IMG/VR virus record: IMGVR_UViG_3300029156_000002
Span: 85,023 to 106,975 of that record
DNA: 21,953 nt
From: a virus
Direction: 5' to 3' (one strand)
Made by a program: the position numbers and the translations under genes. This document shows, one piece after another, positions 1 through 21,953 of the stretch. A model generated the notes under the pieces. The model did not search any database and had not been told where the DNA came from. It saw nothing but the letters and a program-made list of their open reading frames with translations. Every line of letters starts with the position of its first letter. Positions within the stretch are counted from its first letter, which is position 1.

Positions 1-1
1 C

Positions 2-532
2 GGTATCCTCAGCAAAGCGCTCAAGAATCTGCCGGTACTCATTAGCGATTGTTGCTGACGTGCATGGCTTCCAAATCATGCACGACATCACGCTCTCTAG
101 ATAGTTCGTCAGCCAAAAGAAGTTAGGCAGCGTGTTCTTAATGGTTAGAACAGGTACGCCCATAGCAACGCGTGAGCCTTCTGGCAGCGCCTTGATCTGA
201 ATCGGCAGATAACCTAGGTCGTGGAGCTCGCCAATGTGCTCAACGGTAATAGCGTCAGGCCCAAGGGCGTTGCGCATACGCCGAGCATAATCCGCGACGA
301 CTTCCTCTTTCGGAAGGTCAAAGAAATTTTGCTGAAACGTCTCGATTAGAAAGCTTTCGATGAAGTGTTGCAGGCCAAAGAACACAACGGTGTCGCTCTT
401 GACGCCTAGGCGCTTCGCGATGTGGTTGCTTCGAGGCGTGAAGTTCGAATAAACGACCTCAGTCCCCTCAGGGTATTGGCTACGATGGTCAGCCTTGTAA
501 AAGTCGATTGCGGTGAGTGGATTTATACGCAT
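2..532 (-). CDS. nadV: Nicotinamide phosphoribosyltransferase-like protein (NAMPT/NadV family; probable Namat of NARP1), N-terminal part, truncated by the window edge
   Basis: Not in the ORF track. Manual translation from ATG at 532 gives MRINPLTAIDFYKADHRSQYPEGTEVVYSNFTPRS...FFGLQ...LGYLPIQIKALPEGS...WLTNYLES, with the DxYK..H..QYP, YSNFTPR, FFGLQ and GYLP motifs of NAMPT. The start overlaps the end of the PRS-like gene. Confidence 0.93.
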   Translation of the reverse strand, partial: MRINPLTAIDFYKADHRSQYPEGTEVVYSNFTPRSNHIAKRLGVKSDTVVFFGLQHFIESFLIETFQQNFFDLPKEEVVADYARRMRNALGPDAITVEHIGELHDLGYLPIQIKALPEGSRVAMGVPVLTIKNTLPNFFWLTNYLESVMSCMIWKPCTSATIANEYRQILERFAEDT

Positions 533-1272
533 GTCAAAATTCCTTCGTCGTCGATTGTAAAGATTTGGTCGATGATGCCGTCGAATACATCGAGACCCTT
601 CGAAAAGATGCCGTGAGTTACGAATAAGCTAACGTTTTTGGCATTGTGCTTCCTGAGAGCCTTTCCCAGCTCAATGAACGTCCGGCCCCCATCGCAGATA
701 TCGTCTACGATCAGACATTCTTTACCTGATACTCGAACAGGATCAAGAATTTTTGTTTCTATAATTTCTCCTGTTCGCGAGTCTCGGACCTTCGTTGCCA
801 TGACGTAAGGACGTTTCTGCTTCTGGATCTTCTTCTCTGCGCCAGCATCGGGGCAGACGATCAATTTGTCTGCGAAAGCAGCGCCTTTTAGCAATGAATG
901 TTGTTCAATTACAGTTACGTTATTGAGCAAAGCTGGCGTAACGTCTGAGTGAGGATCGATGATCACAACCTTCTCAATATTCATGCCGTTAATCAGGTTA
1001 GTCATTACCTTTACGCTGAGCGCCTCGCCTTCGTTGCACACGCGGTCTTGTCTTGCATATGGAAAGTAAGGGATCGTCAGTTTGGTAATTTTAGTCCCAG
1101 ACCGTTGAACCGCATCATTCAGAAGCAAAAGCTCCATGATGTCACGCGAGCTTTTCAGGTTCGCATAGACATTCACTCTTAATGATAGACGCTGAAATTT
1201 AACGTGTACCTCTCCGCCTGGAAAGGTAGAGGTCTCGTGCGTTGAACCTTCAATTCTTATGTTTGACTTCAT
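523..1272 (-). CDS. prs: Ribose-phosphate pyrophosphokinase-like protein (probable ADPR-PP synthetase, Adps, of NARP1)
   Basis: Motifs FPGGE, IPYFPYARQDR, DPHS, PDAGA, LIVDDICDGGRTF and VTHGIFS. Short 249 aa phage-type form, directly upstream of the NAMPT-like gene. Confidence 0.93.
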   Translation of the reverse strand: MKSNIRIEGSTHETSTFPGGEVHVKFQRLSLRVNVYANLKSSRDIMELLLLNDAVQRSGTKITKLTIPYFPYARQDRVCNEGEALSVKVMTNLINGMNIEKVVIIDPHSDVTPALLNNVTVIEQHSLLKGAAFADKLIVCPDAGAEKKIQKQKRPYVMATKVRDSRTGEIIETKILDPVRVSGKECLIVDDICDGGRTFIELGKALRKHNAKNVSLFVTHGIFSKGLDVFDGIIDQIFTIDDEGILTCV

Positions 1273-6433: not shown

Positions 6434-6636
6434 TTTAGGGCCTTGAAGTTTTTCGTAATGGTAAGGACTGCTGCGCACATGATCGGGACAAGCGGAACGC
6501 TCATGATCACTGCAGGAACAATTCCACCGTAAGCACCAACGCTACCAACTAGCGTCAGCATAAAGAATGCGAGCATAACAACACCAATGCTGGTGTGCAA
6601 CCCGTAACCGAATTCATCTGGATAATTGAGGCTCAT
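6430..6636 (-). CDS. Small two-TM membrane protein (holin-like topology)
   Basis: Two hydrophobic segments and a basic C-terminus (KNFKALK); ATGA overlaps on both sides. Confidence 0.7.
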   Translation of the reverse strand: MSLNYPDEFGYGLHTSIGVVMLAFFMLTLVGSVGAYGGIVPAVIMSVPLVPIMCAAVLTITKNFKALK

Positions 6637-6959
6637 TTTTTCTTCTTGGGTTTGTTTTTGGGTTTGACGTAATCGATTCCTAGATGCCAGATTAGCATGA
6701 TCGCATTCGTAGCTAAAAGAATTAGGTGGTGCTGGCCGGTCTCTTCATCGATGTCCGGCTCTGTAGGATCTGTGAACTTCTCACCGTGGCGACGGAGAGC
6801 GGACTTGTGCTCGTTGACCCGTGCTTCTCTGTCGCCATTGTCTTGCGTCCAATCCCAAGGTGCATATTTGAATGCACCACAAAGAAACCCTCCAGCGATC
6901 GCCCGCAAAGGCCTGGCTGGAATCAACCACAAAGGGGCTTTATTTCCTAGTTCTTTCAT
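6633..6959 (-). CDS. dATP/dGTP diphosphohydrolase-domain protein (DUF5664-like)
   Basis: K..L.LIP, GA.KY..W.W, ALRRH and DEETGQHHL...A.N...L pattern. Probable start is ATG 6959 (TAATG overlap); alternative TTG at 6980. Confidence 0.82.
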   Translation of the reverse strand: MKELGNKAPLWLIPARPLRAIAGGFLCGAFKYAPWDWTQDNGDREARVNEHKSALRRHGEKFTDPTEPDIDEETGQHHLILLATNAIMLIWHLGIDYVKPKNKPKKKK

Positions 6960-9513: not shown

Positions 9514-9838
9514 CTCCCGGCTCCCCTGGCTCAGGATCTTCACCTGCGTTCCCGTAAACGTTTTGCTCAAGCAGCCTTATGCGAACTTCGTGTTCCATAA
9601 GCTCTTCACGATCAAGCTTCAGCTTTTCTAGCAACGTTAGCGATCCTTGGATCTCAACGATATCGCTATGGTTTACTTCGCGGTTTCTTCGAACCTCGAT
9701 CCAAGCGCCGAGCAACGTAGCGGCCGAGACGACTAACATGTAAAGCCAATCAGGATCTGGAAGATCGAAAAGCAGAAGCGCTACGATCGCTAGCGCGATT
9801 ACTGCACCAATAACAATAACAGGGGAAGTGCTCTTCAC
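9494..9838 (-). CDS. Two-TM membrane protein with coiled-coil C-terminus (holin-like candidate)
   Basis: Two TM segments, then a heptad-like stretch (HEVRIRLLE) and an acidic tail. GTG start overlaps the nrdJ stop. Confidence 0.65.
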   Translation of the reverse strand: MKSTSPVIVIGAVIALAIVALLLFDLPDPDWLYMLVVSAATLLGAWIEVRRNREVNHSDIVEIQGSLTLLEKLKLDREELMEHEVRIRLLEQNVYGNAGEDPEPGEPGDETHEI

Positions 9839-12039
9839 TAGAGATCACATGCTCCAGCCATACAGGCAAGCTCTTGCGCTGCGGTTGTTTGGTCTTCGAT
9901 TTCGAACGCGTAAAGTTGCGCGAAGTCGATGTCTGGGAAAATCTCAACCATGTCGTTGTACTGCTCTTCAGTAATCTCGACATTCGGGGTCTGCTGATAA
10001 ATCGTATCGTCCGCTGGGAGAAAGGCCATACCGCCCACAATCTTTTGGTTCTGGTAAAGCCATTGCATCAAGTCGATGAGTTCATGTGGGTAATAGTAGA
10101 TCGTGCAAGAAGGGTTGTGCTCTGTCCAACACAGCTTATTTTTCTTCCACTCTTCGCACTGCTCAATGGCCGAGACGTCCTTGCGGCATCGTGCGCCCGC
10201 TGGTGCCTTCAAAGGGAATGAAGCAACGATCGTCGTGTCCTCTTTGCCAACAAGCGGCTCAATGGGAACCCCGGCGCTCTCAAGTGTTTTGTGCATCGCG
10301 CCTCCCTTACCAACTTGCACGTTGCGGATCTGGTATTTAGACCAACGCGGCGAAATGCCTGATGAGCATCCAAGCAAAACAGCACTATTTCCGCCTGGCT
10401 TGACGCACGTCACGGCAGCGGCGCGGTTGATACCTAGCTTCGCGGCATACTCTACGTTCGTCTGTACGGCTAACGCTCGCAAGCTCAGAAGCTCATCAGC
10501 AGATAGTGGCTGATCCATCTGCCCCGTGATGTCGACACCAAGCAAAGCCTCTTCTTCGCAGTTGCGCTTCCAATCCTCGCCAAGCCGCGGGAAGTATGTG
10601 GCGCTGCTCTGAATCGTTCCGATGATGGCAGCGATGCGCACAGCCTCTGCAAGCTCCTCGTACGTCTGCTCAGGGCGCGAGACAGCGATCGTTAGGTTGC
10701 AGAACTGCCCGCTACGCAAGACAATCTCACAGCAGGGATTAGTCCCAAGGCCCCAGCCAACTCCAGTAAAATCGCGGCGATTAGGAGACATCTCCATCGC
10801 GTTCTTGCGGCTGAAAATCCCTGGCTCGCCCGCTTTAGATTCATTCATCTCTAAGACAAGTTCAGCGATCTCTTGCGCTGTCAGTTCACGATCTGGCCAA
10901 ACCATCGAGTTGTTTGCGTTCGTGCGCCACTTCGCGGTCTCATACCAGTTCCCGTGCTTGGCACGGCGCATCTCGCGGTCGTCCCAGTCAAACAGAGAAA
11001 TCATAGCTGTGCGCCGCACGCCGCCTTGAACAACGCAATCGCCAATTACGCACATGATGTCATGAACGTCTAGTGCCCGAAGCTGTTCGTCTTGGCGAGA
11101 AAGGATCTTGTCGCGAACGAAGTTCAGCATTTTGCGCAAAGGCTCTGGGCCGCTGGACGTGCCGCCTTTGACTTTCAGGATGCTCCCGGCTGGGCGAATG
11201 CGAGAATAGTCAAACTCAACGTCGGTGCCGGCAAACCAAGCTTTTAGGCCTGCATCTAAAGCATCTTCCCAGCCTTCTGAAGAATCATCTATGGTGTAGA
11301 CGTCGGCTTGCCCAGTTCTTTGCTTTTCAACTCTCGGGAGGTCATCGACAAAACGGCGTTCAACCGAAAAGCCAACGCCACAGCCACACATGGAATTGCT
11401 AAGGGCCTCAACGAATACCTTAAGAGAATTAACGCCATTGTAAGAACAGTTGTAAATACATGCATTGTTTCGTCTTGCTGGGGCACCTGCCATTGCAAGC
11501 ATTCGCATAGAAGGCATAGCCCGGTGCTGTAGCATTGCTTTGCGAATAAGCGCAAAATCCTCTTCTGAGATTTTGCCGTCGCTTAGCTCGCGCAAGAAAT
11601 CGAGCGTGCGATCAACTGTCTCGACCCATGTTTCGCGACGATTCAATTCGTGATTGAACCGAGCATACTTGTCGTAGAACTGAAATTCTTGGATCGCCGT
11701 TGGGAAGAATCTCTTCGATTCCTGAAACGCCTTCGCAACCTCAGGGGGAACGGCACGGCCGCGCTCTTTCGCTTGAGCGTCGCGATAGAGGATGTATGCT
11801 TTCGCTGCATCAAATTGAGCGTGCTGGAGGAGCTGACGTTCTACTTCGTCTTGCACGTCTTCAACGGTAAGTGCGCCCGTGAGGCCGAGGGCTTGAACGA
11901 CATCATGCGTTAGAGTGTAAACTAACTCCTTAACTTCTCCAGCCTGAATAGCTGCGAAACAGGCAAAAAGAGCGCCTTGAATTTTCTCAGCATCAAACGG
12001 TGCGACTGTTCCGTCGCGTTTCGTAATCTTGTAGGTCAT
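9838..12039 (-). CDS. nrdJ: Class II (adenosylcobalamin-dependent) ribonucleotide reductase with N-terminal ATP cone
   Basis: ATP cone (KRDG...FD..KI...AKAYILYR), PSMR, YNCS, GCGVGF, GGVRRTA, NPCCEI, TCVKPGG, EHNPS and C-terminal CMAGAC redox pair. Confidence 0.94.
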   Translation of the reverse strand: MTYKITKRDGTVAPFDAEKIQGALFACFAAIQAGEVKELVYTLTHDVVQALGLTGALTVEDVQDEVERQLLQHAQFDAAKAYILYRDAQAKERGRAVPPEVAKAFQESKRFFPTAIQEFQFYDKYARFNHELNRRETWVETVDRTLDFLRELSDGKISEEDFALIRKAMLQHRAMPSMRMLAMAGAPARRNNACIYNCSYNGVNSLKVFVEALSNSMCGCGVGFSVERRFVDDLPRVEKQRTGQADVYTIDDSSEGWEDALDAGLKAWFAGTDVEFDYSRIRPAGSILKVKGGTSSGPEPLRKMLNFVRDKILSRQDEQLRALDVHDIMCVIGDCVVQGGVRRTAMISLFDWDDREMRRAKHGNWYETAKWRTNANNSMVWPDRELTAQEIAELVLEMNESKAGEPGIFSRKNAMEMSPNRRDFTGVGWGLGTNPCCEIVLRSGQFCNLTIAVSRPEQTYEELAEAVRIAAIIGTIQSSATYFPRLGEDWKRNCEEEALLGVDITGQMDQPLSADELLSLRALAVQTNVEYAAKLGINRAAAVTCVKPGGNSAVLLGCSSGISPRWSKYQIRNVQVGKGGAMHKTLESAGVPIEPLVGKEDTTIVASFPLKAPAGARCRKDVSAIEQCEEWKKNKLCWTEHNPSCTIYYYPHELIDLMQWLYQNQKIVGGMAFLPADDTIYQQTPNVEITEEQYNDMVEIFPDIDFAQLYAFEIEDQTTAAQELACMAGACDL

Positions 12040-12194
12040 TCAGAATCGGCAGCTTTGGACATGAGGTAAATAATGCTTGTGAGTGCGTTGGCAAAGAGAA
12101 TAGGATCTACGTCGATTTTTTCGCAGTGCTCTATAATCTCGACCGCAAACTCAGAAATCTCACTAAACGCTTCTTGTGTTTCTTCGTTTTCCAT
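12036..12194 (-). CDS. Acidic 52 aa hypothetical protein MENEETQEAFSEISEFAVEIIEHCEKIDVDPILFANALTSIIYLMSKAADSE
   Basis: Manual translation. The stop overlaps the nrdJ ATG (ATGA), and the start is 1 nt after the CCA of tRNA-Thr. Confidence 0.65.
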   Translation of the reverse strand: MENEETQEAFSEISEFAVEIIEHCEKIDVDPILFANALTSIIYLMSKAADSE

Positions 12195-12195
12195 G

Positions 12196-12269
12196 TGGAG
12201 CCGCGTGAGGGAATCGAACCCCCATCATCTGATTACAAAACAGAAGCTTTGCCACTAAGCTAACGCGGC
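12196..12269 (-). tRNA. tRNA-Thr(UGU)
   Basis: Acceptor GCCGCGT/ACGCGGC, D stem GCTT/AAGC, anticodon loop TTTGTAA, T arm GGGGG-TTCGATT-CCCTC and encoded CCA. U31:U39 mismatch. Confidence 0.9.
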
Positions 12270-12271
12270 TA

Positions 12272-12360
12272 GGGTGCCTTGAGTTGGGGATTCGAACCCC
12301 TGCCCGCCGGATTTAGACACCACCCTGATTCACCGGAACAATCGGGGAAGACTCAAGGGC
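12272..12360 (-). tRNA. Aberrant tRNA-like element with CUA (amber) triplet at the anticodon position; suppressor or pseudo-tRNA
   Basis: 8 bp stem CCTTGAGT/ACTCAAGG and T arm GGGG-TTCGAAT-CCCC. Loop GTCTAAA sits at canonical spacing from the T arm. D region enlarged, anticodon stem weak, no perfect CCA. Confidence 0.55.
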
Positions 12361-12363
12361 TTT

Positions 12364-12449
12364 TGGCTGAGGGGGCCGGGTTCGAACCGGCATGGGCGTA
12401 CTCGCCACTCATTAACAGTGAGCTGCATTTCCAGTTATGCTACCCCCCA
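12364..12449 (-). tRNA. tRNA-Asn(GUU) with long variable arm, 86 nt
   Basis: Acceptor TGGGGGG/CCCCTCA, G73 and CCA; D stem GCAT/ATGC; anticodon arm GCTCA-CTGTTAA-TGAGT; variable hairpin GGCG-AGTA-CGCC; T arm GCCGG-TTCGAAC-CCGGC. Confidence 0.9.
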
Positions 12450-12479
12450 AAAGCCAAGGAGCATTTTCAGCTCCCCAGC
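12449..12479 (-). terminator. Terminator-like hairpin between the SSB gene and the tRNA cluster
   Basis: Minus strand GCTGGGGAGC-TGAAAAT-GCTCCTTGGC (10 bp with three G:U pairs) followed by TTTT. Confidence 0.5.
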
Positions 12480-12489
12480 AAATGACTTA

Positions 12490-13296
12490 CTATTCTTCCA
12501 TGCCTTCAGGCGATTCGGCTGGAATGCCATAAAGCTTTTCGTTAATCTCCGATGGAGACGGAGCAAACTTTTCCGCAAGAACAGTAAACAGATCACAGTA
12601 GCCGCCCGGTCGAGTTGCGTCTGCGATATCTGCTTTTAGCTCGTCAGTAAGAACAGCTGTAGCGTTGTCACCGTCAGCCATTTTCAGCTTATATGTGGTA
12701 TCGTTGAACTCGCGACCCTCTCGTTCAAACGAGACAAGCGCGGGGTTCTCTGGATCGAACAACTTCGGGCCTTCGCCATCGCCCAACAACTTATAAATTC
12801 CCGCCTGAATGTGCGGGTTCTTGCGGTTGCCTTCTTTCGCGATGATATACTTTGGCTTCGTGTAGATGTTCTCAAATTCACCCTTGCCTGGTCGGCGTCG
12901 GTGCCAGAGAGGAACGATAACCCAAGCAAACTGATCCTTAGCTTGAGCTCCCTTAGCGTCTTTCGAACTAAGGTTTTCTCGAATGTACTTCGCAATGGGG
13001 CACGGAGTAGGAGGGTCGAAGGGAAGTGCCGCGCGCATGTGAGGGTTGTCGATCAGAGGGTTAACGTTAGGATCGTAGCTCATTGCGCTGCGACCTACGC
13101 CGTCTTCCTTTTTCCCGATCTTTCCGCCATGCATCGCGACAGAAACCCATGCACGACCACGTGTTGAAGGATGGTCATCCCCGTCACGCTGAAAGGGAAC
13201 AAGAACGCAAAGTGTCTCGCCCTCGTCGAAAATGTGGTTGTTCTTCTCTTGCGATTGTACGGCCGTTTTGGCCATTGCTGCGTAATCAAGTGTCAT
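12490..13296 (-). CDS. Probable single-stranded DNA-binding protein (gp32-like)
   Basis: H...CPI putative zinc site, FDPEN...FEREG...DTTY pattern and acidic C-terminal tail; located in the replication module. Confidence 0.6.
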   Translation of the reverse strand: MTLDYAAMAKTAVQSQEKNNHIFDEGETLCVLVPFQRDGDDHPSTRGRAWVSVAMHGGKIGKKEDGVGRSAMSYDPNVNPLIDNPHMRAALPFDPPTPCPIAKYIRENLSSKDAKGAQAKDQFAWVIVPLWHRRRPGKGEFENIYTKPKYIIAKEGNRKNPHIQAGIYKLLGDGEGPKLFDPENPALVSFEREGREFNDTTYKLKMADGDNATAVLTDELKADIADATRPGGYCDLFTVLAEKFAPSPSEINEKLYGIPAESPEGMEE

Positions 13297-13297
13297 T

Positions 13298-13702
13298 TTA
13301 CTTCTTCGTTTCTTCGTTATTTTGTGTAGATGAGTTAATATTCAAATGATCGTTTGATGGATTATTCTGTTGTTCTTCTTTTTTCAGCCAAGGGTTAATC
13401 TTGGCAATATTTGCTCTTGCGGCAGTAAAGGCAAGCTGAAACCGCTCGGGAACGTCGACTTCACCAAACGGGCTTGTAAATTTCATAGCCGCGAGCTTTT
13501 TTACTCCGAAGCGCCCAAAGCCGTGGACCTTCACATCTTTTCCCAGCGCAATCTGATCAACGATTGTCCTGAACAGGGCGTTAAATTCGCGATGGATGCT
13601 GAAGCGATGTGCGCAGTGTGGGCATTCCACGGCATAAAGATGCTTCTCTTTAAGGATCTCGGTTAACGCACGAGAAGGACGCTTTATTTTTCGTGACGGC
13701 AA
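13298..13702 (-). CDS. HU/IHF-family DNA-binding protein with N-terminal CxxC
   Basis: I...IALGKDVKVHGFGRF.V and V.VPER..L.F.A HU signature. TTG start with GAGG upstream. Confidence 0.8.
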   Translation of the reverse strand: MPSRKIKRPSRALTEILKEKHLYAVECPHCAHRFSIHREFNALFRTIVDQIALGKDVKVHGFGRFGVKKLAAMKFTSPFGEVDVPERFQLAFTAARANIAKINPWLKKEEQQNNPSNDHLNINSSTQNNEETKK

Positions 13703-13762
13703 ACGATCGAACCCTCATATAGTTAAACACCAAACAGGATCACAAATGACCCCCCTCGTCAA

Positions 13763-14683
13763 CTATTTTGACGTGAGAATTCTCTCAATGCCTTTATGCT
13801 TCCATGCCTGCCTAGCAATATGATCTAGACGACCAATATTGCGAGCGTTGTCAAGAGCGCGCAACGCTTTAGGCAATCGAACGTTAGCACGATGAAAGCG
13901 GCCAGGAAGCAGCACACGGCCAATATGAGAGACTGACTCAACATTACCATCAAACAGCATCGCCACTAAAGGCAACGCCCACTGAGCTGCTCCGGCGTTC
14001 CTGGCGAAACGGCGCGAGACGGGGTAAACTGCGTCCCCCGTCCCAAGCGAGAAAACTTCAATGCATTCAAGCGGGATGTGCATTGCTACAAGCTCAGCTA
14101 CACCGCAAAGTGCAGGGTTGTTGACAACAATGCTTCCGTCAACCAGCGAAACTCGTTCACCCCGAACTTTCATTTCGTGGGCTGGGAAGTAGATAGGTGC
14201 CGAAGAGCTAGCTTTGATAACGTCGCGCAGCCGGTAATTCTCGTGATCCTTTTTGTGGCTCTTGAAAAAAACGGCTTTCGTGTTGGTCACGTCATACGCC
14301 GGAACAACTAGATTAGCTTTCAGTTCACCTAGCCTCAAATCGCCGAGCTCTTTTTTCAAAGCATTTTCCAGCCCCTTGTCTGAATACTTTGGTGCTGAAA
14401 TGCCTGATCGAAACGCCCGACCGATCCGTTTAAAAAACCACCTAGCTCCGCTTTCGAAAATTTGATCGCCGTGTTCGGTGTACAGACCTATAAGCTCTTT
14501 GGCCGGACGACCTGACGCAATCAAGCCGCCTAGAATAGCCCCTGTGCTGGTCCCGCAGATCATATCGAATTCTTTGTAAAGAGGCTTTCCAAGTTTTTGT
14601 TCCAGATGAAAAAGCCAACGTGCAGGGATGATTCCGCGAACCCCGCCGCCATCAATTGATAGTACTTTATATGTCTTCGCCAT
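13763..14683 (-). CDS. Patatin-like phospholipase (CapV-like subfamily)
   Basis: LSIDGGGVRG oxyanion loop, GTSTG nucleophile, ASSSAP.YFP and DGS...NNP. Confidence 0.92.
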   Translation of the reverse strand: MAKTYKVLSIDGGGVRGIIPARWLFHLEQKLGKPLYKEFDMICGTSTGAILGGLIASGRPAKELIGLYTEHGDQIFESGARWFFKRIGRAFRSGISAPKYSDKGLENALKKELGDLRLGELKANLVVPAYDVTNTKAVFFKSHKKDHENYRLRDVIKASSSAPIYFPAHEMKVRGERVSLVDGSIVVNNPALCGVAELVAMHIPLECIEVFSLGTGDAVYPVSRRFARNAGAAQWALPLVAMLFDGNVESVSHIGRVLLPGRFHRANVRLPKALRALDNARNIGRLDHIARQAWKHKGIERILTSK

Positions 14684-18960: not shown

Positions 18961-19512
18961 TTATTCTTCTAGTTTGGCGAAGTGAAGCAGAACAACTTTT
19001 TCGACGTTGTTGTTTGCTGCGAGTGTCTCGCAAATTGACGCAAGCGTTTCGCGGTTAAAACCAGTCCCTGGAGCATCGATGAGTGCTTGTGACGCTGATA
19101 CTCCATCAGGGCCCGCAAAGCTGTAGGAGACGAATGCCTTGAAGCTAGAAGGTACCTCGATCGCCTTGGCAACATCAGCAGGCATCCAACCTAGACCCTT
19201 GGTTGCTTTTTGCACGGGATGCTCCGGGGGCGTCTTGTCCATATTCGCGCGATGGACTTCAGCAAAGGCCGCTTGAAACTCAGCTTCGCTATAACCCGCT
19301 TCAAGAATCGCCCCAAGTGCAATGTAGATGTCGTCGCAAGCTTCATGCAAGATGTTGATGGAATCCTTGTTTCGTATCGCTTCTTTGAGCTCACTACCCT
19401 CTTCGTCGATCATGTCGCAACGCTTGTCATCGACAAACTCTTTAGAAATATCGACGGAGGAAAATGGAAACATACCCATTCGCTTGTGGAAGTCTCTTAC
19501 TTTATTGAGCAT
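18961..19512 (-). CDS. MazG-like / PRA-PH-type nucleoside triphosphate pyrophosphohydrolase with extra C-terminal domain
   Basis: VRDFH, EEGSEL, E.CD..Y...G, F.EVHRANMDK and K..GW.P motifs. Confidence 0.85.
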   Translation of the reverse strand: MLNKVRDFHKRMGMFPFSSVDISKEFVDDKRCDMIDEEGSELKEAIRNKDSINILHEACDDIYIALGAILEAGYSEAEFQAAFAEVHRANMDKTPPEHPVQKATKGLGWMPADVAKAIEVPSSFKAFVSYSFAGPDGVSASQALIDAPGTGFNRETLASICETLAANNNVEKVVLLHFAKLEE

Positions 19513-20104
19513 AACTTAGTTTCTCCATAATCTTCGCTAGGGAACGTTCTAGAACTTCATCTGTAGAGGCAAGCGCGTCGACAACTAAAAAATCATCCGT
19601 GAACGATTCGACAGTGTCCATATAAAGACCTCTAATCACTTTTTGTTGTTCGATGTTTTCCATTGCATCACGGGCTTCAATGCGATCGGAAAGTTTTTCA
19701 GGGTCAGCGTCAAGTAAAATTGTTAGGTTAGGGTCTGGGAATATTCGGCACAGGTCCCAGCAAATATTTTTCGTTGCGCCGAATGCAACTTGATACACAT
19801 ATGTGGAGAGCTTATAGCGGTCCGTCAACAAGATTGATTTATCGTCCTGAAGTTTTGGTTCGATAAGATCCAAGCAGTGTAGTGCGCGATCCGCAGAGAA
19901 AAGAACCGCCATATAATCCGGCGGTGCTTTGACTTCCGAGCGACCTTCAAACTGTTTGCGAATTTCTATTTCAAGCGCACGATGCCAGGGCTCGCGCGTC
20001 ATTATGACGTCTGCTTCAGGTCGTTCGATCTCAAGTCGATTTCTAAGCCTGCGAATCAACGTGCTTTTGCCAGATCCGTCAATTCCTTCGATTGAAATTA
20101 GCAC
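19502..20104 (-). CDS. tmk: Thymidylate (dNMP) kinase
   Basis: ISIEGIDGSGKST, TREP, LFSADR, DRY..S..VYQ and P.LTILLD. Probable GTG start at 20104 after AAAGGA. Confidence 0.92.
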   Translation of the reverse strand: MLISIEGIDGSGKSTLIRRLRNRLEIERPEADVIMTREPWHRALEIEIRKQFEGRSEVKAPPDYMAVLFSADRALHCLDLIEPKLQDDKSILLTDRYKLSTYVYQVAFGATKNICWDLCRIFPDPNLTILLDADPEKLSDRIEARDAMENIEQQKVIRGLYMDTVESFTDDFLVVDALASTDEVLERSLAKIMEKLSYAQ

Positions 20105-21090
20105 AGCAATTCCTTTCGTGCTACAACGCATCGAGCCATTGTGTCGTCAAGCGTACAAGACTGATTCCAAGTAGCATAAGGGCCAACGAGCATTACGTTG
20201 CTTGCAAAGCAAGCCATCTGGGGAGTATTCCCCACGTATCCCTTCAGGTCAAAAATTACGGAACTGATTTCGAAATCATCCCCAAACAAATCCTCCATGT
20301 CGTCCGCTACGCACTCCGGCGAATACTCTGTATTGGCCTCGCATGAGTAGAACTCTCCAGCCATAGTCACACGATGAATCGCGCTAAGATATGGCGTATA
20401 AAAAGAATCGCAAAGCGTAAATTCTGGCTTGATTGTCGTAACGTTATAAACAGAAGTTTTCGTAACTTCTGCGGCGGAAACGCCATGCTGAAGTGTCCGC
20501 TCAGCTTCCCAGAACGGACAAGCATAAACCAGAAGATCGTATTCTTCTACATGCTCTTGACCTGTATTCATGTCTGTATAGCATAACAGGGACTCTTGCT
20601 CGTTTACGTAGGTCACATTTCCGTGAACAGGGCTCGCAAAGTCGATCAGTTTTCGAGCCAGTTCAACGAAATCGGTTTTCGTGTACTCTTCCCCATCTTT
20701 TTCCGCATCGCTAAAGGCTTGATAAGCTTCTCTGTCGTCCTCAGCGTCGCGAAAACGAGTCCTGCGAAATTGATGTCTGTGAAGGGCTTCGGAATCTTCT
20801 GCGTTAAGTTCGTTCATAAGTTTGCTAAATGAGCGAAGCTCTCCATTCTTGTCCATGATGCCACTAGCAAGCTTGTATTCTGAGTGCTCAAGTTCAAAGT
20901 AATCAAGCATCGCTAAGACTTGCTCAGTTGGCCGAAGCGCACGAAGCGGGCCTGCATTGAATTCTAGTGTTCGATGCGAATATGCATTTAGGTTGCGGGT
21001 AATAACGGTTGCATCAATGGACGGAAGGCCGGACAGTACCCAGTTTGCTACGAGGCCGTGCATCCCTGCACCAATAATAACTACTTTCAT
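20098..21090 (-). CDS. FAD/NAD(P)-binding oxidoreductase (UDP-galactopyranose mutase / protoporphyrinogen oxidase-like fold)
   Basis: N-terminal KVVIIGAGMHGL dinucleotide-binding motif, EEYDLLV and C-terminal NVMLVGPYATW....LDD. Confidence 0.8.
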   Translation of the reverse strand: MKVVIIGAGMHGLVANWVLSGLPSIDATVITRNLNAYSHRTLEFNAGPLRALRPTEQVLAMLDYFELEHSEYKLASGIMDKNGELRSFSKLMNELNAEDSEALHRHQFRRTRFRDAEDDREAYQAFSDAEKDGEEYTKTDFVELARKLIDFASPVHGNVTYVNEQESLLCYTDMNTGQEHVEEYDLLVYACPFWEAERTLQHGVSAAEVTKTSVYNVTTIKPEFTLCDSFYTPYLSAIHRVTMAGEFYSCEANTEYSPECVADDMEDLFGDDFEISSVIFDLKGYVGNTPQMACFASNVMLVGPYATWNQSCTLDDTMARCVVARKELLC

Positions 21091-21755
21091 GCGCATTCCG
21101 CCTTTCGAATAAGTTCTTCCATCTCTTCCACCCCGCCAAGCGTTGGCGTGTACGTAACCTTGTGGCTTTCCCCGTGCTCGTCAGTAATCACCCAGCGGCG
21201 CGGGAAAGGACTGAGCGGATCGCCTGCAGGCTTCCACAGCGCCAGTGCTGAACCTCCGTTTGGCGTGCTCGCCTTGATGCCTGGGGGAGCGTCGAAGGGC
21301 ACACGACCAAGCCAGACAATCCCATCAGCTTCCCACAAGCTATCCCACCAACCAGCAAAATGAGCTGGGACAAGGGCGCCAACGTTTTTGTGCTTGCCGT
21401 CTTTTGCGCAGCGCTCAACCCAAGGCCGCGGGCGAGAGTAGTTTCCGTTGACGAACGTGTTACCGATCCAGTCTGCTTTCGTGCCGTCTTCTTCGGGCGT
21501 GTCACCCATATAAACGAAGCACCCTTCATCTTGGTTCATGAACTCCGCAGTGTGCGACCAAGGATTAAAGAACGGGTCTGTGTCGATCGGCCCAATCAGC
21601 TCGCGGTAAATCTCTAGGACCCAACGCGGCGTGCACCAGCAATCACGCAAGGCGTCTATCATTCTCTCATGAGGTTCTTTGTTTCGAGCTTTGTTCGGGA
21701 TAACTGGCTGATACCCCTCAATCAGCAAGTGGGCGTCTTTTGCATTAATGATCAT
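21087..21755 (-). CDS. Phage Dam-family DNA N6-adenine methyltransferase-like protein, atypical catalytic motif
   Basis: D.W.TP.W, IDTDP, EEDG...DW, FVNGNYS (in place of NPPY), WV..C, LVPA...WW and GRV.F. Confidence 0.75.
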   Translation of the reverse strand: MIINAKDAHLLIEGYQPVIPNKARNKEPHERMIDALRDCWCTPRWVLEIYRELIGPIDTDPFFNPWSHTAEFMNQDEGCFVYMGDTPEEDGTKADWIGNTFVNGNYSRPRPWVERCAKDGKHKNVGALVPAHFAGWWDSLWEADGIVWLGRVPFDAPPGIKASTPNGGSALALWKPAGDPLSPFPRRWVITDEHGESHKVTYTPTLGGVEEMEELIRKAECA

Positions 21756-21952
21756 TTAAAGTCTTTTCTGTGGCTAAAGTTCAGTTCCCCAGCCTCAATA
21801 AAGCTGACTGCAATACTAGCGACCAAAACGGCTTTTAATTTGTCGCAGTCGCGAACTGTAGTTTTGTAGTTCTGAACGTTGCTATCCAGAAAGTGCTGAG
21901 GTTTGAGTAATCTCTTTATCGCTACTGTGCGAATATGATCGTGACTGGGAAA
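21752..21952 (-). CDS. C-terminal part of an unknown protein, truncated by the window edge
   Basis: Open frame ...FPSHDHIRTVAIKRLL...SHRKDFK ending in a TGA that overlaps the methyltransferase ATG. Confidence 0.65.
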   Translation of the reverse strand, partial: FPSHDHIRTVAIKRLLKPQHFLDSNVQNYKTTVRDCDKLKAVLVASIAVSFIEAGELNFSHRKDFK

Positions 21953-21953
21953 C

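Follow-up and report, generated by a model that had tools for sequence, protein, structure and literature searches.

We analyzed a window of 21,953 nucleotides (positions 85,023 to 106,975 of virus record IMGVR_UViG_3300029156_000002), in which a run of minus-strand genes leads into dnaE. The first-pass annotation had described four overlapping genes that end 4 nt before dnaE, and the coordinates and reading frames bear this out. The first encodes a Dam-like methyltransferase (21755-21087, 222 aa, PF05869 E 7e-13) and is followed by a flavin-fold ORF (21090-20098, 330 aa when counted from the ATG that overlaps the Dam-like stop, with the longest ORF starting at 21096), whose only Pfam match is DAO at E 0.0055. 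Next come a dNMP kinase (20104-19502, PF02223 E 4.5e-29), which likely starts at a GTG after a purine-rich site and has its longest ORF from 20131, and a MazG-like pyrophosphohydrolase (19512-18961, PF01503 E 3e-10), directly before the DNA polymerase III alpha gene dnaE (18956-15255), which was assigned by family search. Upstream, the run is extended by the 3′ end of F2 (21752..21930, minus strand), a lineage-specific gene whose stop overlaps the Dam-like start and for which an Atlas search gave no usable match. Gene overlap is frequent along the whole minus strand of the window, so overlap alone is no mark of a dedicated module. A class II-type ribonucleotide reductase gene lies near the run, promoter and terminator scans gave chance-level results, and counts of four-base palindromes showed no strong avoidance (ratios 0.79-1.16).

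A 146-bp terminal repeat (21785..21930, identical to contig bases 1-146) closes the contig of this uncultured myovirus into a 106,806-bp circle and places the last 23 window bases outside it. F2 crosses the circular junction, where the F2 profile of related phages matches each end of the contig as well as the joined frame. In two public runs, contigs extend beyond 21930, and the letters that follow are those from contig base 147 on. The CheckV completeness estimate of 76% is at odds with this junction evidence. We rejected the idea that genes are missing in an unsequenced 24%, because the repeat, the F2 frame, and the public-run contigs all close the junction.

The kinase, which the first-pass annotation counted in a candidate modification module, has a P-loop and shares the REP, LFSADR, and DR-x3-S-x3-YQ motifs with the solved thymidylate kinase 5x7j, and it is likely an ordinary thymidylate (dTMP) kinase. 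The MazG-like protein, proposed as a dNTPase of the same module, has its best PDB matches in DR2231 (E 2e-8), an enzyme whose activity is exclusive to dUTP according to a reference title in PMC10014863. It carries an ExxE/ExxD metal motif and the segments EVHRAN and GWxPADV, and it is likely a DR2231-type all-alpha NTP pyrophosphohydrolase acting as a dUTPase; specificity for dUTP is only likely because the loop between EVHRAN and GWxPADV differs from that of DR2231. With these predicted activities, the phage ribonucleotide reductase would supply deoxynucleotides, the DR2231-type enzyme would convert dUTP to dUMP and keep uracil out of DNA, the host thymidylate synthase would produce dTMP (a sister phage would use its own ThyX), the kinase would make dTDP, and DnaE would then incorporate normal thymidine. 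The arrangement resembles phage dTTP-supply sets (dUTPase, thymidylate synthase, dTMP kinase, and ribonucleotide reductase) in that genes for a dUTPase-like protein and a dTMP kinase adjoin that of the polymerase and a class II-type reductase is encoded close by; in the sister, ThyX makes the set complete. It departs from such sets in that the window genome has no thymidylate synthase, the dUTPase is of the all-alpha DR2231 type, and a flavoprotein gene leads the run.

The closed genome was searched for enzymes that could form or transfer a modified base. Six-frame searches for ThyA (PF00303), ThyX (PF02511), and PurA/PurZ (PF00709) gave no match while finding their positive controls, 172 ORF scans revealed no glycosyltransferase, hydroxymethylase, deaminase, or deazaguanine-pathway family, and no aminotransferase was recognized. 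The PurZ, hydroxymethylases, and glycosyltransferases that the first reading proposed to look for are not among the recognized genes; an unrecognizable modification enzyme could be missed because the majority of the ORFs belong to no family. A DUF5664-like gene does lie at 6633-6959 (ORF to 6980, minus strand, PF18909 E 1.9e-14) as first described, yet it stands alone 12 kb from the four-gene run and unlinked to it. This family is that of the dATP/dGTP diphosphohydrolase N-terminal domain. In the accessible text of PMC12884076, the characterized DUF5664 protein of Wayne hydrolyzes dATP, dUTP, and dGTP, and this together with the PF18909 match could suggest a purine substitution (2-aminoadenine or 7-deazaguanine) that is served by the DUF5664 enzyme and has nothing to do with the run. 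We give that very little credence, since the genome has no PurA/PurZ match and its ORF scans no deazaguanine-pathway family, and the gene is solitary with its closest isolate matches in small Edwardsiella phages.

The Dam-like protein is 28% identical to the HK97 methyltransferase (NP_037744.1) over 157 aa and scores above the Pfam cut-off, its closest known counterparts being the lambdoid orphan Dam-family enzymes of PF05869. Unlike them it has NGNY where the HK97 enzyme has NPPY, so the catalytic (D/N)PPY motif is absent and its activity is uncertain. PF05869 was found in one of five relatives and not in the sister genome G006, and DUF5664 was found in none of five relatives and not in the sister, in a search run without a positive control. 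The two genes had been counted as parts of one module, and the failure to find them in the sister speaks against that; the Dam-like gene is likely an inserted orphan phage gene of the Dam-family N6-adenine methyltransferase type.

The flavin-fold protein is a divergent member of an uncharacterized viral flavoprotein family with the UGM/PPO/amine-oxidase fold. A profile of this family, for which we assembled 70 representatives, matches it along positions 4-317 of 325 (E 2.2e-49), which indicates full-length homology, and by synteny the gene holds the family's slot between F2 and dnaE. Its AlphaFold model is confident over the full fold (pLDDT 92.6); a single-sequence fold reached pLDDT 35. A comparison to Glf and PPO had been proposed at the outset; the best VIA structure match is the UDP-galactopyranose mutase 4dsg (Z 24.6, rmsd 3.3, 315 aligned), followed by PPO 2ivd (Z 21.9), with 3hdq at Z 19.3. 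The match spans the whole chain, but 4dsg and 2ivd exceed the window protein by about 120-140 residues and share 12-15% identity with it, the window genome has no glycosyltransferase, and a shared fold does not show a shared function. PF03275 (Pfam GLF) matched none of 56 family members, no isolated-phage protein matches the family, and none of its members turned up when GTDB genomes were scanned with one pattern. In word-index homologue searches the flavoprotein and the Dam-like protein each retrieved nothing but themselves, single-sequence locus scans found nothing, and a complex prediction of the flavoprotein with the C-terminal part of F2 (L016 pair) scored 0.02. The gp47 flavin lyase of PaMx11, which acts in thymidine hypermodification, is likewise a flavoprotein that a phage encodes within a cluster of DNA-metabolism genes, and the window genome has a GNAT gene. 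In the text of PMC8989533 available to us, however, gp47 is MnmC1-like and depends on 5-hmdU together with its DNA kinase and an amino acid:DNA transferase, none of which was recognized in the window genome.

Relatives place this family in a different setting. Among the 34 relatives with sequence spanning the flavoprotein gene to dnaE, 24 have the flavoprotein gene at the head of a cassette of MazG-HAD, a ThyX paralogue, and a class III aminotransferase, usually with its own kinase, nine carry nothing of the cassette, and one, the sister, has the kinase-dUTPase pair of the window phage and a canonical ThyX. In most relatives the flavoprotein gene comes after F2. The RHRx7S motif occurs in 0/30 cassette ThyX paralogues. 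Likewise, LFxAxR, which marks the window kinase as the canonical dTMP type, occurs in 0/25 cassette kinases. The cassette is a candidate thymidine/DNA-base-replacement operon. We found no literature description of it or of this gene set; hypermodification surveys could name the family in their supplementary gene tables. The window phage shares with cassette carriers the flavoprotein family, the slot between F2 and dnaE, and the lineage, and it differs from them in having no ThyX paralogue, aminotransferase, MazG-HAD, or cassette-type kinase. Profiles of the first three, built from 11-12 relatives each, gave nothing better than E 0.5 on the circularized window genome, and backbone profiles used as controls matched at 1e-11 or better. 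The early suspicion of a modified base was therefore well aimed at the gene family but is not supported for this genome, and the candidate for a new base would be the relatives' cassette rather than the window phage.

The residues of the flavoprotein follow the cassette. The window copy has an intact frame, retains GxGxxG, and keeps 13 of the 23 residues invariant in cassette copies, but it lacks the cassette-linked N142, H296, and R322 (L007 numbering) and the GG motif, with S129, Y287, and S313 (numbering from the 21096 ATG) in place of the three residues. N142 and R322 are kept in 21/21 cassette copies, four of them deep-branching copies left out when the columns were chosen, versus 0/8 flavoprotein-only and 0/2 window-type copies, these 10 cassette-less copies representing only about four independent lineages. 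Overall, the eight flavoprotein-only copies are no more distant from the core family than the others, yet they lack N142 and R322. Because the flavoprotein here has neither the cassette operon nor the signature residues, the window phage likely makes normal DNA. The protein, first put forward as a possible modification enzyme, is likely a non-catalytic or repurposed relic of the cassette flavoenzyme that would have lost its flavin chemistry. Simple pseudogene decay was rejected: frames are intact, and in one cassette-less clade, other than that of the window phage's own gene, dN/dS is 0.10-0.24 for the flavoprotein gene versus 0.10-0.17 for DnaE (five pairs, three further pairs being saturated without a ratio). 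Since dN/dS is low, some function of the gene persists in that clade.

The complete sister genome G006, whose DnaE is 43.5% identical to that of the window phage, has the same flavoprotein-kinase-dUTPase-dnaE order, so the synteny looked for is conserved in one relative, and that relative encodes a canonical ThyX with an intact RHRx7S motif. Its flavoprotein is far more eroded (3/23 invariants kept, GxGxxG lost), and 72 further G006 ORFs include no modification enzyme. A role for the flavoprotein as a third kind of thymidylate synthase between dUTPase and kinase was rejected because the sister has a canonical ThyX too and an eroded copy. The same genome weighs on the proposal that the window run remains able to produce a modified nucleotide or sugar not yet described, or to install one, in which the flavoprotein would act on a new substrate, the kinase would take the product, and the pyrophosphatases would remove the canonical competitor. 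Tight gene coupling next to dnaE, three genes syntenic in the sister, a fold closest to a nucleotide-sugar mutase with GxGxxG retained, a genome without its own thymidylate synthase, and the presence of DUF5664, NT5C nucleotidase, GNAT (far off on the other strand), and AlkB-like genes would all fit it, and a canonical kinase is compatible with a modified base because two cassette carriers, G002 and G004, have a separate gene for a canonical thymidylate kinase as well. Nevertheless, we regard it as quite improbable, given that the closed genome shows no recognizable base-forming or transfer enzyme, the motifs of both kinase and dUTPase are of the canonical kind, the sister pairs a canonical ThyX with a flavoprotein devoid of GxGxxG, and DUF5664-like proteins also occur, by the accessible text of PMC12884076, in phages with canonical genomes.

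The DnaE tree nests cassette-less groups at least twice inside the cassette clade, which suggests that the cassette was lost repeatedly while the flavoprotein gene stayed. The position of the window phage itself depends on the method: FastTree excludes it and L051 from the cassette clade (support 0.84), and IQ-TREE places them inside, weakly (57-76). The former would suit a flavoprotein that is an old core gene with a cassette-independent job, recruited when one clade later gained the cassette, so that the window line never had it, its DNA is canonical, and its gene is no relic. The nine of 34 relatives that keep the gene without a cassette, the near-complete G009 and G010 among them with no ThyX at all, fit this history, as do the purifying selection in a cassette-less clade and a basic K-T-R patch kept almost everywhere. 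We nonetheless think it unlikely: the flavoprotein residues lost in the window phage are also lost in lineages where loss of the cassette is clear, many lineage members have no flavoprotein gene altogether, the sister copy is badly eroded, and there is the IQ-TREE placement. Our preferred reading, which we hold to be probable, is that of an ordinary dTTP-supply pair of predicted dUTPase and dTMP kinase beside DnaE, preceded by an orphan Dam-like gene and a likely non-catalytic or repurposed flavoenzyme relic. From the observed gene content, gene order, motif states, closed circle, and presence/absence pattern we infer all of the substrates and the canonical DNA of this phage, as well as the loss of flavin chemistry and the direction in which the genes changed. 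A bolder scheme gives the flavoprotein a double role: across most of the lineage it would act as a catalyst in a thymidine-replacement pathway, amine-bearing and so far undescribed, and a second role would keep it under selection after pathway loss; here it would be re-tooled and still flavin-capable, putting a new base or sugar into DNA with the canonical-looking kinase and dUTPase, and we think there is little chance of it.

For the window genome the result is mostly negative, as the run looks like ordinary nucleotide supply. The value of the window phage is that of a natural control against which its relatives' candidate base-replacement cassette can be set; their comparison connects the flavoprotein with the cassette and names N142, H296, R322, and the GG motif as the residues linked to it. 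Should the cassette make a new base, such phages would illustrate how the lineage manages without it, relying on a canonical kinase and dUTPase and perhaps on protection by an orphan methyltransferase.

Re-examination of the window bore out the four open reading frames that the first-pass annotation had placed upstream of dnaE, together with the overlaps between them and the 4-nt gap before dnaE. In Pfam searches, the run matched Dam (E = 7e-13), weakly DAO (0.0055), thymidylate kinase (4.5e-29) and PRA-PH/MazG-like (3e-10), DnaE was also matched, and the distant DUF5664-like gene is PF18909 (1.9e-14). The window is the terminal part of a 106,975-base contig (G000 C1) that encodes tail-sheath, baseplate, terminase and portal proteins, and the phage is therefore a myovirus.

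CheckV labels this record linear and 76% complete, and if that figure were right, gene absences would carry no meaning. We find that window positions 21785-21930 are identical to contig bases 1-146 (a 146-bp terminal repeat), that the reading frame of F2, a lineage-specific gene upstream of the flavoprotein gene, runs through the contig join as far as the Dam start, and that past 21930 the contigs of two public runs, which are possibly the source DNA and not independent samples, carry the letters that follow base 146. We therefore conclude that the genome is a 106,806-bp circle, which falls within the 96-116 kb range of complete relatives. The final 23 bases of the window (21931-21953) lie outside this circle and mask the repeat, which probably accounts for the CheckV label. 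Six-frame searches of the circle, in which the controls were detected, gave no ThyX, ThyA or PurA/PurZ, and scans of 172 ORFs against Pfam and PHROGs, which covered all but several short window ORFs and left most ORFs without a family, gave no glycosyltransferase, hydroxymethylase, deaminase or deazaguanine enzyme. The PurZ, hydroxymethylase and glycosyltransferase genes that the first-pass annotation had proposed to look for in the rest of the genome were not found by these searches. We consider a purine substitution very improbable.

The Dam-like protein is 28% identical to the HK97 methyltransferase and differs from it in having NGNY at the position of NPPY, the Dam catalytic motif; its family is present in one of five relatives checked and was not found in the sister genome G006. 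The kinase aligns end to end with solved thymidylate kinases, with REP, LFSADR and DR-x3-S-x3-YQ all present. The sole significant match of the MazG-like protein among solved structures is DR2231 (E = 2e-8), whose activity is exclusive to dUTP according to a reference title in PMC10014863. Excerpts of PMC12884076 state that the Wayne DUF5664 enzyme hydrolyses dATP, dUTP and dGTP, and that phages with canonical genomes carry its close relatives. The earlier suggestion of a new modified base in this phage now appears unlikely, given the thymidylate kinase-type motifs, the DR2231-like pyrophosphatase and the lack of any base-forming enzyme found in the closed circle; that the compact four-gene module actively makes a new modification is, in our estimate, a poor prospect.

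In the complete sister genome G006 (96,391 bases, with terminal repeats; DnaE 43.5% identical), F2 is followed by the flavoprotein, kinase and dUTPase genes and then by two small ORFs and dnaE; no Dam gene interrupts this run, and a canonical ThyX is encoded some 9 kb downstream. A dUTPase, ThyX, dTMP kinase and reductase make up a complete canonical dTTP route, and this phage differs from G006 in having the same set minus thymidylate synthase. The G006 flavoprotein has lost GxGxxG and retains 3 of 23 cassette invariants, and 72 further G006 ORFs, chosen as having no match to this phage's structural or replication genes, yielded no modification enzyme. The most likely reading, which we favor with some confidence, joins three parts: the predicted dUTPase and dTMP kinase would feed normal dTTP to DnaE, with the thymidylate synthase step supplied by the host; the Dam-like gene would have been inserted late and be doubtfully active; and the flavoprotein would be a remnant, either non-catalytic or repurposed.

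Relatives were loci from viral and metagenome collections, with 80 primase loci left out of the analysis. They belong to a large uncultured myovirus lineage (L006-L021, L141-L193; about 96-116 kb, GC 0.34-0.65) for which no isolate and no prophage was found, and whose DnaE is longer in several members (1,545-1,990 aa) and possibly contains inteins. The lineage order is DnaC, DnaB, primase, (MoxR, vWA), sigma-like, F2, flavoprotein, a variable slot, dnaE and HU. In 24 of the 34 distinct relatives whose sequence covers the stretch from flavoprotein to dnaE, the slot is filled by a cassette that comprises MazG-HAD, a ThyX paralogue, a class III aminotransferase and, in most cases, a divergent kinase. 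In 9 it contains no cassette gene, and in 1 it contains this phage's kinase and dUTPase. The flavoprotein-kinase-dUTPase-dnaE order, whose conservation in related phages the first-pass annotation had proposed to check, thus recurs in one sister. The cassette profiles (ThyX paralogue, aminotransferase, MazG-HAD) matched nowhere in this phage's circle, and the LFxAxR motif separates its kinase from 25 of 25 cassette kinases. None of 30 cassette ThyX paralogues has RHRx7S, the ThyX motif, and two cassette genomes also encode a canonical thymidylate kinase elsewhere. Cassette extras vary between an NAD-dependent epimerase, a methyltransferase-like gene and a second class III aminotransferase (L009:12615-14027, L007:11826-12626, L018:11922-14744), suggesting from gene content that end products may differ.

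The flavoprotein gave 70 representatives in a full phmmer search, and its core profile drew 144 clusters out of 7,997 candidates scored; the closest Atlas clusters are unnamed and 95-100% viral, isolate searches matched no isolated-phage protein, and literature searches (main texts) gave no description of the family or the cassette. A model from a 56-row alignment (pLDDT 92.6) has UDP-galactopyranose mutase 4dsg as its top structural match (Z 24.6, rmsd 3.3, 315 aligned), with protoporphyrinogen oxidases below it (Z 21.4-21.9), and Foldseek ranked amine oxidases, UGM and renalase together. This modeled fold shows flavin ancestry, without assigning the protein a reaction. Four short-contig homologues (P0003, P0030, P0038, P0041) are nearest in pattern to this phage's flavoprotein, with flavin-binding motifs eroded further.

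Columns invariant in 17 core cassette flavoproteins were scored in all other copies (L007 numbering). Four deep cassette copies keep just 31-35 of 53 columns, yet all four have G32, G66, M141, N142, H296 and R322. Although 36-43 of 53 columns persist in the eight flavoprotein-only copies, N142 and R322 are kept by none, H296 by one, and G32, G66 and M141 by two each. N142 and R322 are also invariant in 111 further core-family matches, taken irrespective of gene neighborhood. From this pattern, which covers few independent lineages (about four without the cassette and three deep ones with it), we infer that N142, R322 and their companions may serve chemistry required only alongside the cassette. 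This phage's protein keeps 25 of 53 columns and an intact GxGxxG, with S129, Y287 and S313 (counted from the 21096 ATG) at the N142, H296 and R322 sites and an altered flavoprotein GG motif. In run X2, contigs break within this gene; in one of them the reverse complement of 20675-20704 is fused to 20757, with the junction at a 7-bp inverted repeat. Run X1 shows no break. The join may be an 82-bp inversion variant (20675-20756) or an amplification chimera, and in the inverted form the frame would stay open with residues 115-137 changed.

In the cassette-less clade L152/156/157/159, flavoprotein dN/dS (0.10-0.24) is close to that of DnaE (0.10-0.17; 5 pairs, with high GC that may bias dS), and therefore something is still selected. 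This, with the canonical thymidylate kinases of two cassette genomes, counts against a simple relic. The dN/dS result also speaks for a flavoprotein with its own ancestral role, independent of the cassette and with canonical DNA, a reading that we nevertheless judge unlikely for this phage. Both DnaE trees make this phage and G006 sisters and nest cassette-less groups among carriers at least twice; FastTree (54 sequences) places the pair outside the cassette clade (support 0.84) and IQ-TREE (24 sequences, 850 columns) inside it (57-76).

Window 1-1272 and 9838-14683 also hold NAMPT and PRPP synthetase (NAD salvage), an ATP-cone class II-type ribonucleotide reductase, and HU-like and patatin-like phospholipase genes, and 12196-12449 holds tRNA-Thr and tRNA-Asn. 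The contig further carries a DDE transposase gene (PF01609; L001:6855-8285) on the strand opposite to the adjoining replication cluster, genes for three paralogues of 184-208 aa without an assigned function (66863-67489, 72656-73210, 74220-74789), an AlkB-like gene (76919-77497) and a GNAT gene (9911-10369). The locus is useful as a natural control, bringing the candidate cassette of its relatives into sharper focus.
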